From NCBI GenBank assembly GCA_050998755.1, contig JBPCPW010000013.1, positions 5,668 to 69,667 of the forward strand: a stretch of 64,000 bases of DNA, read 5' to 3'. The stretch is from Candidatus Dormibacteria bacterium. GTDB lineage: Bacteria > Chloroflexota > Dormibacteria > DASZGP01. Within the stretch, counting starts at the first letter, position 1, and every line of letters begins with the position of its first letter. Both the position numbers and the translations under genes were made by a program. A model generated the notes under the pieces. It saw only the letters and a list, made by a program, of their open reading frames with translations, ran no database searches and was not told the DNA's origin. Shown here piece by piece: positions 12,394 through 13,821 of this stretch.

Positions 12394-13821
12394 GTGCAAT
12401 TCATCGCGATCGACTGGTCGGGCAACGCCTCCAACGCGGCGCGGTTCACCGCAGTGGCTGTCGTGCGCGAGGGCGCCCTGGTCAGCGTGGAGACAGGGCG
12501 CACCGGGCGGGAGCTGGCCGACCATATCCGGGACCTGGCCGCCGCAGACTCCCAGACCGTGGTCGGTCTAGACTTCGCGTTCTCGGTACCCGCGTGGTAT
12601 CTCCGGTACAGGAACTTCGCCAACGTTGAGGAGCTCTGGCGCGCCGCCCGCAGCGAGGGCGAGAGTTGGGTGAAGGGCGAGTCGCCGTTCTGGGGGCGCC
12701 CGGGCGTGAAGCGCCCGGACCTCGAGCATCACTTCCGGGCGACTGACCGGGCGGTGCCTTCGGTCGGTGGGATCTCGCCGAAGTCGGTCTTCCAGGTGGG
12801 CGGCGCGGGAGCGGTGGGGACCGGGTCTGTCAGGGGTTGGCCTTTCCTGTTCGATCTCCTGGAGCGCGGCTTCCGCATCTGGCCGTTCGAGGATGGATGG
12901 CCCCTGGTCATCGAGATCTACCCGCTTATCCTCACCGGACCGGTCATCAAATCGAGCGCTGCGGGCCGTCGAGCTTACCTGGAGGACCCGCGCTGGCAGC
13001 TGCCCGACCGAATGATCGGGATGGCGGCGGCATCTGAGGACACATTCGACGCGGCCGTCTCGGCGCTGGTGATGGCGCAGCACGCGGAAGAACTGATCTC
13101 GCTCAAGGCCACAACCGACCCGCAGACCATGCTCGAAGGCGCAATCTGGTTCCCGCCGTCAGCGTCCGTCGAGCCCCTGCATCCATGCCTTCCCGAGGGG
13201 CCGTTGCTGACGGATCGCTTCGAAGACGCACTGACATTAGCGGCCAGGGTCCACCGGACGCAGGTGCGGAAGGGCAGCAACCTTCCGTATGTCGGCCATC
13301 TGCTCGGCGTCGCGTCTATCGTGCTCGAGGAGGGCGGAGACGAAGACCAGGCGGTCGCGGCGTTGCTCCACGACGCCGTCGAGGACCAGGGCGGTCTGCC
13401 GATGCTCGACGAGATCCGGGGGCGGTTCGGGCCGCGGGTGGCGGGCATTGTTGAGGGCTGTACCGACGCGGTGACCAATCCCAAGCCGCCCTGGCGGAAG
13501 CGCAAGGAGGACTACCTCGAGCACCTGTCTCTAGCGCTGCCCGAAGTCTTGCTGGTATCGCTGGCCGACAAGCTCTTCAATGCACGCTCGATCCTCCTGG
13601 ACTACCGCCGGGTCGGCGACGCGGTGTGGGAGCGCTTCCACGCGGGTCGCGACGACCAAGTCTGGTACTACCGGCAGTTGGCCGACATCTTCATGAGCAG
13701 CGGCGACCTCGTGCCCCACGTGCTGGCGAGCGAGCTGGACCGGGTGGTCACCGAGATCGAACGCCTGCCCGCGGGCCGTGCTGGAACCGGGTCGGTTGAG
13801 CACCGTCGCGACCCCGTGTGA
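12394..13821 (+). CDS. Two-domain protein: an N-terminal ~280-aa domain of unknown function (begins IAIDWSG; possibly an RNase-H-like fold, DUF429-like) fused to a C-terminal SpoT/RelA-type HD hydrolase domain (small-alarmone-hydrolase-like).
   Basis: The C-terminus HLLGVASIVLEEGGDEDQAVAALLHDAVEDQGGLPMLDEIRGRFGPRVAGIVEGCTDA...LVSLADKLFNARSIL matches the (p)ppGpp-hydrolase HD pattern (H...HD..ED...KLADRLhN). GTG start at 12394. Confidence 0.7.
   Translation: MQFIAIDWSGNASNAARFTAVAVVREGALVSVETGRTGRELADHIRDLAAADSQTVVGLDFAFSVPAWYLRYRNFANVEELWRAARSEGESWVKGESPFWGRPGVKRPDLEHHFRATDRAVPSVGGISPKSVFQVGGAGAVGTGSVRGWPFLFDLLERGFRIWPFEDGWPLVIEIYPLILTGPVIKSSAAGRRAYLEDPRWQLPDRMIGMAAASEDTFDAAVSALVMAQHAEELISLKATTDPQTMLEGAIWFPPSASVEPLHPCLPEGPLLTDRFEDALTLAARVHRTQVRKGSNLPYVGHLLGVASIVLEEGGDEDQAVAALLHDAVEDQGGLPMLDEIRGRFGPRVAGIVEGCTDAVTNPKPPWRKRKEDYLEHLSLALPEVLLVSLADKLFNARSILLDYRRVGDAVWERFHAGRDDQVWYYRQLADIFMSSGDLVPHVLASELDRVVTEIERLPAGRAGTGSVEHRRDPV
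13751..13818. repeat. Direct repeat copy A (~68 bp; the first 29 bp are identical to copy B at 15619-15686).
   Basis: ccgagatcgaacgcctgcccgcgggccgt is shared exactly, followed by ~40 bp of roughly 70% identity ending in ..cgcgaccccgt. It encodes the C-terminal tail (EIERLPAGRAGTG...) of the HD-fusion protein. Confidence 0.75.

Follow-up and report, generated by a model that had tools for sequence, protein, structure and literature searches.

The gene at positions 12394-13821 of the 64,000-nucleotide stretch of Candidatus Dormibacteria DNA analysed here (the window) encodes a 475-aa protein in which an N-terminal DUF429-like domain is fused to a C-terminal HD domain of the small alarmone hydrolase (SAH) type. 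We propose, with a probability of roughly 60%, that this fusion is a two-headed phosphoesterase encoded by the first cistron of a WYL-repressed operon, which continues with a phosphatase (PTPase) and an ADP-ribosylglycohydrolase (ARG), and that it works in an ARG-centric conflict or repair system. The proposal draws on the predicted catalytic make-up of both halves, on the repeated joining of the two modules in other proteins, and on an operator that the fusion gene shares with other genes of the predicted system.

The fusion gene and its product

The open reading frame (ORF) starts with GTG and is uninterrupted. Its GC content by codon position (0.71/0.47/0.84) is what real genes show in this window of 62-70% GC, and its product starts, with MQFIAIDWSG, at the same point as the closest homologs. 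Among 5.8 billion proteins searched, full-length homologs of the fusion were found in about 32 clusters, with 45-73% identity and E-values down to 7e-216. Because these full-length homologs exist, we conclude that the ORF is a genuine gene and not a chance reading frame.

AlphaFold2 modelling of the full fusion from an 83-sequence alignment gave a mean pLDDT of 92.7 and showed two compact domains separated by a disordered linker at aa 260-270; the final 12 residues were of low confidence, with pLDDT below 50 at aa 469-475. The parts of the gene are as follows:

12394-13821, plus strand: DUF429-like/SAH fusion gene, 475 aa, GTG start, uninterrupted ORF
12394-13170, plus strand: N-terminal domain (N-domain), aa 1-259, DUF429-type RuvC/RNase-H-like fold as predicted from the model, conservation and a sub-threshold Pfam match
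13171-13227, plus strand: inter-domain linker, aa 260-278, pLDDT below 50 at aa 260-265; gapped, unconserved and variable in length among homologs
13228-13761, plus strand: C-terminal HD domain, aa 279-456, SAH of the RelH/Mesh1-L type as predicted from HD_4 and 7QOE matches and a full catalytic set

PADLOC gave no credible model match for the fusion protein, and the possibility that it is a component of a known defence system was rejected on this ground.

The C-terminal half is predicted to be a RelH-type alarmone hydrolase

The Pfam family HD_4 (PF13328) matched aa 279-420 with an E-value of 4e-23 and 82-84 bits against a cut-off of 27.2. In NCBIfam, solely the hydrolase end of the RelA/SpoT model spoT_relA (model positions 1-122) matched the fusion, and neither Pfam nor NCBIfam gave a RelA_SpoT synthetase (nucleotidyltransferase) match in the protein. 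In a sequence comparison of the HD half with the PDB, the best relatives were two RelH proteins, that of Leptospira levettii (7QOE) with an E-value of 9e-49 and that of Corynebacterium glutamicum (7QOC/7QOD) with 2e-31; Lmo0812, MESH1 and the hydrolase domains of Rel/SpoT came next. In Foldseek, the HD model superimposed on 7QOE with a target-normalised TM score of 0.92, a root mean square deviation of 1.5 Å and 44% identity, and all structural matches of the HD half at E<=1e-3 (42/42) were SAHs or Rel/SpoT hydrolase domains. Residues H287, R292-K293, H302, H326-D327, E330-D331, R370-K371, D392-K393 and N396 are invariant, or nearly so, in 25 aligned fusions; the catalytic set, comprising the metal-binding H...HD...D, the ED pair, the RK pair and the N of (A)DKxxN, is complete and aligns with the RelH residues. 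Sequence and predicted structure place the HD half among the RelH/Mesh1-L small alarmone hydrolases, with all metal-binding and catalytic residues intact. Membership of a dNTP triphosphohydrolase or cyclic-nucleotide phosphodiesterase subgroup was rejected, as every significant sequence or structure match was an SAH or a Rel/SpoT hydrolase.

The window HD half has the sequence, the fold, the catalytic residues and the C-terminal helices in common with the RelH structures, the PDB codes of which were confirmed in PMC9293644. The RelH proteins are, however, stand-alone single-domain dimers of about 190-200 aa, whereas the window HD domain carries a 260-aa N-domain and is encoded in an ADP-ribose-processing operon, so that the 475-aa protein lacks the stand-alone form of an SAH. 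RelH of C. glutamicum belongs to the Mesh1-L subfamily and acts as a (pp)pGpp pyrophosphohydrolase that depends on Mn2+ (PMC5954133; PMC9293644). MESH1/HDDC3 also shares the HD_4 fold and the catalytic motif, and a second group of fusions, described below, carries a MESH1-matching HD domain; it differs in being a single-domain enzyme with NADPH-phosphatase, ppGpp-hydrolase and tRNA-3'-pyrophosphatase activities (bioRxiv 10.1101/2021.04.30.441581), and the window protein falls in the RelH branch, not in the Mesh1 branch.

The N-terminal half is predicted to adopt a DUF429-like RuvC/RNase-H fold

Pfam DUF429 (PF04250) matched aa 25-232 with an E-value of 4e-4 and 18-20.6 bits, under the cut-off of 23. 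The same family was matched by 18 of 59 members of the N-domain family at E<=0.01 (best E 3e-6), a precomputed PF04250 match exists in four relatives, and UniRef labels relatives as 'DUF429 domain-containing'. When modelled alone with 58 stand-alone homologs, the N-domain reached a pLDDT of 95.5 and a pTM of 0.93, and the order of its secondary-structure elements, b1-b2-b3-a-b4-a-b5-a, is that of an RNase-H-like core. Invariant acidic residues were found at D7 (end of strand 1), D60 (after strand 4), E174 (strand 5) and D216/D219 (in the following C-terminal helix). These residues stand at the canonical RNase-H positions, are invariant in 83 sequences and lie in a family of about 50% identity across 260 aa, a pattern of conservation that, read from the alignment, enzymes typically show. 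Strands 4 and 5 are separated by a large insertion with the conserved Trp/Gly/Arg/Lys motifs PFWGR and KSxFQxGGAGxVGTGSxRG.

A PDB sequence search with the N-domain gave no match, and Foldseek found no significant match to it among solved structures; the weak top matches were to an integrase, a terminase-nuclease, RuvC, RuvX/YqgF and a few ASKHA cores, over about 60 residues. Among predicted viral structures, RuvC resolvases were the best matches (probability 0.96-1.00, target TM 0.55-0.64), followed by terminase nucleases and RNase H, all with weak E-values. Sequence and model together assign to the N-domain a RuvC/RNase-H fold of DUF429-like type, with a set of invariant acidic residues. An assignment to a metabolic enzyme or an ASKHA kinase was rejected, since no Pfam, NCBIfam or PDB sequence match was found and RuvC and terminase nucleases dominate the weak Foldseek matches.

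DUF429 proteins (PF04250; COG2410/COG4328/COG4923; e.g. Rv0776c of M. tuberculosis), which are annotated as predicted nucleases of RNase H fold, resemble the window N-domain in their stand-alone length of about 260 aa, their RNase-H-like fold and the acidic residues on the first and fourth strands. They are mostly single-domain, with occasional fusions to domains of nucleotide metabolism, among them Nudix and RelA/SpoT; the window N-domain differs in forming a distinct, tightly conserved subfamily with the Trp/Gly-rich insertion. DUF429 has been placed in RNase-H-like clade D together with RuvC/YqgF (PMC3985635). The N-domain family comprises 2331 clusters (50% identity) at E<=1e-3, of which 502 remain at E<=1e-30. 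Most members are solitary proteins of about 265 aa without conserved neighbours; a conserved partner gene for the stand-alone genes was rejected because their contexts all differ, and no member was found on 72,556 plasmids.

The original prediction, made from the sequence alone, had read this ORF as a two-domain protein, and it proved to be a real gene in which Pfam and AlphaFold2 recover both domains. The motifs that it quoted are present and invariant across the fusion alignment, its assignment of the HD half to the SAH type agrees with the matches above, and the dNTPase or phosphodiesterase subgroup that it named as the contrary case was looked for and did not appear. Its guess of a DUF429 or RNase-H-fold N-terminal half is borne out by the sub-threshold Pfam match, the 18/59 family members, the UniRef names and the RuvC fold matches, and a known metabolic enzyme, which it had considered as the alternative for this half, was not matched.

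The fusion is rare but recurrent

Among the proteins fetched, the N-domain and HD_4 were combined in 32 clusters, which fall into four or more kinds:

Window protein and P0001-P0021: N-domain followed by RelH-type HD
P0022-P0031: N-domain followed by Mesh1-type HD (P0026 against human MESH1, E 1e-59)
P0041, P0055: HD followed by N-domain
P0323: RelH-type HD followed by N-domain

HD_4 was the commonest partner of the N-domain among 60 long family members; the other partners include MazG-like, HIT, NUDIX, HEPN, RadC, AbiEii and ADP-ribosylglycohydrolase domains. No full-length fusion was found in the best 80 one-genome-per-species GTDB loci, in 79 metagenome loci, on plasmids or in phages, where single-domain relatives only were seen. 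As far as these sequences tell, the architecture is rare but recurrent, the two modules having met in a minimum of three to four fusion events that involve two SAH lineages and both domain orders. Since it is rare and yet recurrent, the fusion argues for a functional link between the N-domain and SAH modules. The repeated joining in both orders and with both lineages is also an argument for a single substrate or pathway shared by RNase-H-like chemistry and the removal of alarmone-type pyrophosphate.

Two further architectures of the N-domain family were observed. P0288 (697 aa) joins the N-domain (aa 2-255) directly to an ADP-ribosylglycohydrolase domain (aa 307-620). It lends independent sequence support to a tie between the N-domain module and ADP-ribose processing, though it represents a single cluster and could be an artefact of gene calling. 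In P0179, the N-domain is fused to an Atl1/MGMT-type damaged-DNA-binding domain, and in the locus L003 a distant homolog of the fusion (4603-6602) adjoins the alkylation-repair genes Ada/AlkA/Ogt; together these two cases hint at a DNA-damage connection.

The nearest precedent in the literature concerns the opposite activity. Small alarmone synthetases (SASs) and SAHs are single-domain proteins, with the exception of the mycobacterial actRel SASs, which have an N-terminal DUF429 (Atkinson 2011, PMC3153485). RelZ (MS_RHII-RSD, RnhD; MSMEG_5849) of Mycobacterium smegmatis has two reported activities, cleavage of RNA:DNA hybrids and R-loops and synthesis of (pp)pGpp (PMC7591505; PMC10500699), and its isolated domains are both inactive (PMC7591505). 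The RNase H specificity and physiological role of RelZ/RnhD are unsettled, and deletion of rnhD caused no UV or peroxide phenotype (PMC5224475). Like RelZ, which is of the actRel group, the window protein combines an N-terminal DUF429-type domain with a C-terminal RelA/SpoT-homolog catalytic domain in a high-GC setting of actinobacterial type, and so brings chemistry on nucleic acids and on alarmones together in one protein. It differs from RelZ in having a hydrolase (HD_4) in place of a synthetase (RelA_SpoT), in an N-domain that lies at or below the DUF429 threshold, and in its WYL/ARG operon context; the N-domains of the two proteins are likened by the Pfam family label alone. SAHs have been described as single-domain, and RelZ, a DUF429 domain joined to a synthetase, is the sole known multi-domain short RelA/SpoT homolog.

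An ancestral operon split by an NAD-salvage cassette

Downstream of the fusion gene lie a phosphatase gene and an ARG gene, separated from it by a cassette of opposite orientation:

13751-13817, plus strand: direct duplication, left copy, equal to the last ~22 codons of the fusion gene
13839-15516, minus strand: NAD-salvage cassette, with NadR-like gene 13839-14909 and PnuC gene 14797-15516, by Pfam
15618-15685, plus strand: direct duplication, right copy, spanning the phosphatase gene start
15664-16194, plus strand: Rhodanese-phosphatase (R-P) DSP-PTPase of PTP-SAK / Tc-R-P / PTP-NADK type, second ancestral cistron, by Pfam, 62% identical to the L002 gene
16176-17099, plus strand: ARG, third ancestral cistron, PF03747 E 1e-65, 68% identical to the L002 gene

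The phosphatase and ARG genes overlap. In the related locus L002, whose fusion is 66-69% identical to that of the window, the fusion gene is followed directly by the phosphatase gene and then the ARG gene on one strand; in L089, with a fusion of 72-73% identity, the phosphatase ORF begins 4 nt before the fusion stop. In the window the fusion and phosphatase genes are 1.8 kb apart, and the gap corresponds exactly to the NadR-PnuC cassette, which is absent between the two genes in both L002 and L089. The cassette is bracketed by a 67-nt duplication (38 nt at 97% identity plus 31 nt at 74%), the duplicated piece being the former junction of fusion stop and phosphatase start, from which the last 12 residues of the window fusion derive. 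Because the genes are contiguous in L002 and L089 and the cassette is flanked by the duplicated junction, the arrangement fusion, PTPase, ARG is, on this comparison of sequences, the ancestral operon, later split by insertion of the NAD-salvage cassette. Being a recent insertion absent from L002 and L089, NadR-PnuC does not define the function of the fusion.

A six-site operator links the fusion gene to a candidate WYL regulon

The palindrome GCGACA-N5-8-TGTCGC occurs in six exact copies in the window against 0.06 expected, and none of 100 shuffles had more than one (0/100). All six copies, with spacers of N6/7, fall within 12.3-23.3 kb. Only exact sites were counted, two-mismatch sites being no commoner than chance. 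The operator copies and the genes of this region are:

12339-12356: operator 1, GCGACA-N6-TGTCGC, 37 nt upstream of the fusion start codon
17096-18004, minus strand: histone-deacetylase-family gene, PF00850 E 5e-31
18665-18682 and 20015-20032: operators 2 and 3, at the 5' ends of TY-Chap3 paralogs
18001-18684, 18710-19312 and 19309-20046, minus strand: three tandem TY-Chap3/YbjN-like paralogs, TY-Chap3 match E 2e-9; the L001 homolog of the first matches TY-Chap3
20062-20484 and 20481-20708, minus strand: VapC (PIN) and VapB (ribbon-helix-helix) pair, overlapping TTGA stop/start
20789-20807: operator 4, spacer of N7, 65 nt ahead of the gene for the WYL regulator
20872-21864, plus strand: HTH-WYL-WCX transcription factor (HTH_11-WYL-WCX), by Pfam and PADLOC WYL models
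22220-22237: operator 5, 24 nt ahead of the ARPP-1 gene
22261-23286, plus strand: ARPP-1 gene, PF20208 E 1e-76, 61% identical to the L001 gene
23305-23322: operator 6, 19 nt past the ARPP stop codon

Upstream of the fusion gene the arms of the palindrome are invariant and the spacer is variable in the window, L001 and L002; L089 and L090 have one mismatch, and the position relative to the start codon is kept. L001 has operator copies at 9943 and 12059, the second lying between a TY-Chap3-like gene and an operon that holds the WYL regulator and ARPP. L002 has one copy at 9943 and another at 13741, with 1 mismatch, at the place equivalent to the second copy of L001. The window WYL regulator is 64% identical to the L001 regulator, whose operon likewise carries the operator. 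Modules have been shuffled between the loci, with PTP-ARG lost in L001, chaperones moved and cassettes inserted, and the pairings of operator and gene persist. From its placement in these sequences, we conclude that the palindrome is a putative regulon operator common to the fusion, TY-Chap3, WYL and ARPP genes.

The arrangement resembles that of the WYL regulators BrxR, CapW, PafBC and DriD, which have the HTH-WYL-WCX architecture and a palindrome before their own gene and the regulated genes. To our knowledge, the operator sequence and regulon content found here differ from those of any known WYL regulon.

Several minor features of the region were noted. At least two of the window TY-Chap3-like paralogs have an N-terminal CxxC...C/H zinc-ribbon-like motif, and L001 and L002 have only one or two paralogs. 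The VapBC pair has been inserted between the chaperone operon and the WYL regulator. Judging from coordinates, the histone-deacetylase-family gene is the last of a minus-strand unit downstream of the operator at 18665, and it converges on the ARG gene, the two stops overlapping. The operator pattern also has one exact match at 9698-9715 of L046, an unrelated Acidobacteriaceae locus with a stand-alone SAH only, probably by chance. An Rfam scan of the window gave no structured RNA or riboswitch match, and a consensus scan found no sigma-70 promoter or intrinsic terminator near the fusion gene. In the segment 12375-12393 a -10-like AATAAT hexamer ends about 6 nt ahead of the fusion GTG, and a similar hexamer precedes the start in L089/L090; the fusion mRNA may be leaderless or nearly so.

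Comparison with ARG-centric systems

A role against ADP-ribosylation by viruses has been predicted for ARG-centric systems (Iyer, Burroughs, Anantharaman, Aravind 2022, Viruses 14:1977, section 3.8). According to the text of that paper, their parts are ARG, a coupled phosphatase (R-P or alarmone-type HD), a WYL/Nudix factor, TY chaperones, ARPP, restriction endonucleases and helicases. The window has the full list as given there, including an ARG, an adjacent R-P phosphatase, a WYL factor, TY-Chap3, ARPP, restriction endonuclease and helicase genes close by, and an HD phosphatase; no obvious partner ADP-ribosyltransferase (ART) of the ARG was seen among the neighbours scanned, two of which had no match of any kind. 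The coupling of ARG with a phosphatase, the WYL factor, and TY-Chap3 and ARPP, which characterise the predicted systems, are all found in the window, where the WYL gene also shares the operator. What differs is that the text of the paper names neither an RNase-H/DUF429 domain on the HD component nor an operator; the histone-deacetylase-family protein is also not among the system components in the text consulted.

A full-text literature search for DUF429 found no description of a fusion of DUF429 with an alarmone hydrolase. The literature already contains DUF429 fusions to RelA/SpoT homologs, SAHs of the RelH type, and ARG-centric systems that include an alarmone-type HD phosphatase; the recurrent DUF429-like/SAH architecture, its first-cistron position, the six-site operator and the insertion scar were not found described in the literature searched. 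The original prediction had called the fusion unusual, which holds for the rarity of the architecture but overlooks that a DUF429 fusion to the opposite activity, the RelZ synthetase, was already known. It had also placed the gene under a palindromic operator; this was confirmed, the arms GCGACA/TGTCGC upstream of the fusion gene being part of a regulon-wide set, but it had missed the WYL-controlled ARG-centric system predicted in 2022, in which an alarmone-type HD phosphatase is already listed. With the present locus, this predicted anti-ADP-ribosylation system gains an operator with six sites, a candidate for its WYL repressor and a defined operon.

Proposed function and its alternatives

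In the proposed mechanism, the WYL factor would sit on the GCGACA-N6/7-TGTCGC sites at the promoters and hold the regulon off; a ligand, either a nucleotide or a nucleic acid, would release it. Next, the HD head would remove a 3'(2')-pyrophosphate or phosphate from ribose. By analogy with RelH its default substrate would be (pp)pGpp/(pp)pApp; by analogy with MESH1 it may instead be an ADP-ribose-derived or related adenine nucleotide, or an RNA 3' end. The latter substrates are plausible because SAH folds also hydrolyse NADPH and the pyrophosphorylated CCA end of tRNA. The N-terminal head, taken to be metal-dependent, would bind or cleave nucleic acid; the most plausible target is an RNA:DNA hybrid or a strand that carries a modification. 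The reasons for assigning it a role on nucleic acid are its fold, its conserved acidic residues, its fusions to Atl1 and ARG, and the precedent of RelZ. The downstream phosphatase and ARG would strip ADP-ribose and its phosphates. The locus could reveal whether SAH folds act on ADP-ribose-derived or nucleic-acid-linked phosphates in bacterial immunity or repair.

A more far-reaching version, which we regard as distinctly unlikely, takes the DUF429-like module as a platform for handling nucleic-acid ends that has been coupled repeatedly to enzymes removing nucleotide adducts, among them SAH (3'-pyrophosphate), ARG (ADP-ribose), HIT, Nudix and MazG-like domains. In the present system the fusion, acting jointly with the R-P phosphatase and ARG, would carry out WYL-induced repair of RNA or DNA that has been ADP-ribosylated or pyrophosphorylated by phages or toxins. 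Such a pathway, if real, would be without precedent as a nucleic-acid de-modification route of immunity that uses an alarmone-hydrolase fold on polymer ends and not on free alarmones.

Several points weigh against the proposal that the fusion is a two-headed enzyme of a WYL-repressed ARG-centric operon. The distant fusions in L003 and L004 have no ARG, PTP, WYL or ARPP gene beside them, and close homologs of the window ARG, PTP and ARPP genes were found in none of 159 stand-alone SAH loci and in none of the stand-alone N-domain loci; because of this, membership of the ARG system is a property of the 66-73% identity clade only and not of the whole architecture. Within that clade an AdnAB/AddAB-like helicase-nuclease lies left of the fusion locus, at 2539-5655 (minus strand) in the window, 1689-8362 in L001 and 623-7041 in L002, which suggests a conserved chromosomal neighbourhood among related high-GC bacteria; the clade loci near the AdnAB-like pair are probably related chromosomes, and part of the conservation of gene order is probably inherited synteny. 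Since the insertion, there has been no operator directly before PTP-ARG in the window. The WYL factor is a candidate operator-binding repressor by its autoregulatory placement and by analogy with known WYL regulators, the enzymatic activity of the fusion members is predicted throughout from sequence, and the ARG-centric system is itself a prediction only.

The main rival, which we consider unlikely, is that the protein mirrors RelZ and resets the stringent response at replication-transcription conflicts, the DUF429 head clearing R-loops and RNA:DNA hybrids and the SAH head lowering (p)ppGpp locally so that growth resumes, with the ADP-ribose genes as mere neighbours. RelZ does join DUF429 to a (p)ppGpp/pGpp synthetase and reportedly cleaves RNA:DNA hybrids and R-loops, and the HD half of the window protein is, by sequence and structure, a bona fide RelH-type (pp)pGpp hydrolase; the distant fusions outside ARG systems, one of them beside Ada/AlkA/Ogt, and the N-domain-Atl1 fusion of P0179 also fit this reading. 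WYL factors such as PafBC and DriD control DNA-damage regulons, which agrees with it as well. However, the shared operator and the overlapping fusion and PTP genes tie the fusion of this clade to ARG, ARPP and TY-Chap3, and the N-domain family is only borderline DUF429 and resembles RelZ by family label. The RelZ precedent is itself uncertain, given the unsettled RNase H specificity and the rnhD deletion without UV or peroxide phenotype (PMC5224475). Quite improbable in our view is that the HD head alone is catalytic, with the N-domain as a degenerate RNase-H module for regulation, oligomerisation or sensing, or that the protein is a 2'/3'-phosphatase of the NADPH/PAPS type in NAD metabolism. 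Multimerisation commonly regulates SAH and SAS enzymes (PMC9293644), the isolated RelZ domains are inactive, and the fold matches of the N-domain are weak, all of which would suit a regulatory module; acidic residues invariant in 83 sequences and about 50% identity over 260 aa look enzyme-like and disfavour one. The NAD-metabolism variant would explain the adjoining NadR-PnuC genes and is in keeping with MESH1, which is an NADPH phosphatase and binds PAPS, and with the fusion of Mesh1-type HD domains to the N-domain family, but NadR-PnuC is a recent insertion missing from L002 and L089.

The original prediction had hinted at an antitoxin role against toxSAS, and a broader form of this idea makes the fusion an immunity or detoxifying eraser that acts against toxic alarmone synthetases, such as toxSAS and Tas1-like (pp)pApp toxins, or against pyrophosphorylation of the tRNA CCA end. 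Some SAHs do neutralise toxSAS and restore pyrophosphorylated tRNA (bioRxiv 10.1101/2021.04.30.441581), and the island also has a type IV restriction enzyme, Mrr, VapBC and a MazE-GNAT pair. The antitoxin hint found no support, as no toxSAS (RelA/SpoT synthetase) gene was found beside the fusion in the window or in L001-L004. PADLOC has no matching model, and the operon partners are ADP-ribose enzymes and not a toxin; we therefore hold the eraser reading to be very improbable.

Other genes of the neighbourhood

The remaining genes annotated around the fusion locus are:

2539-5655, minus strand: AdnB/AddB-like nuclease, by neighbour annotation
5875-8979, plus strand: type IV methyl-directed restriction enzyme (PLD-helicase-DUF3427), PADLOC model E 3e-274
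9015-9983, minus strand: Mrr-type endonuclease with a long N-terminal extension, by neighbour annotation
10017-11279 and 11304-12023, minus strand: two ORFs of 420 and 239 aa with good coding statistics, immediately upstream of the fusion gene
23568-23816 and 23817-24233, minus strand: MazE/AbrB-type antitoxin-like gene and GNAT acetyltransferase gene, the former directly after the latter

No ART or sirtuin Pfam match was found among the scanned neighbours, and the two ORFs at 10017-11279 and 11304-12023 had no match at all in Pfam or PADLOC and no homolog in related loci. The first of them was compared with a 416-aa ORF of L002 and proved unrelated. These two ORFs could be variable effectors of the island. 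The type IV restriction enzyme and Mrr point to a defence-island setting, and the MazE-like and GNAT genes may form a GNAT-type toxin-antitoxin pair at its right edge.

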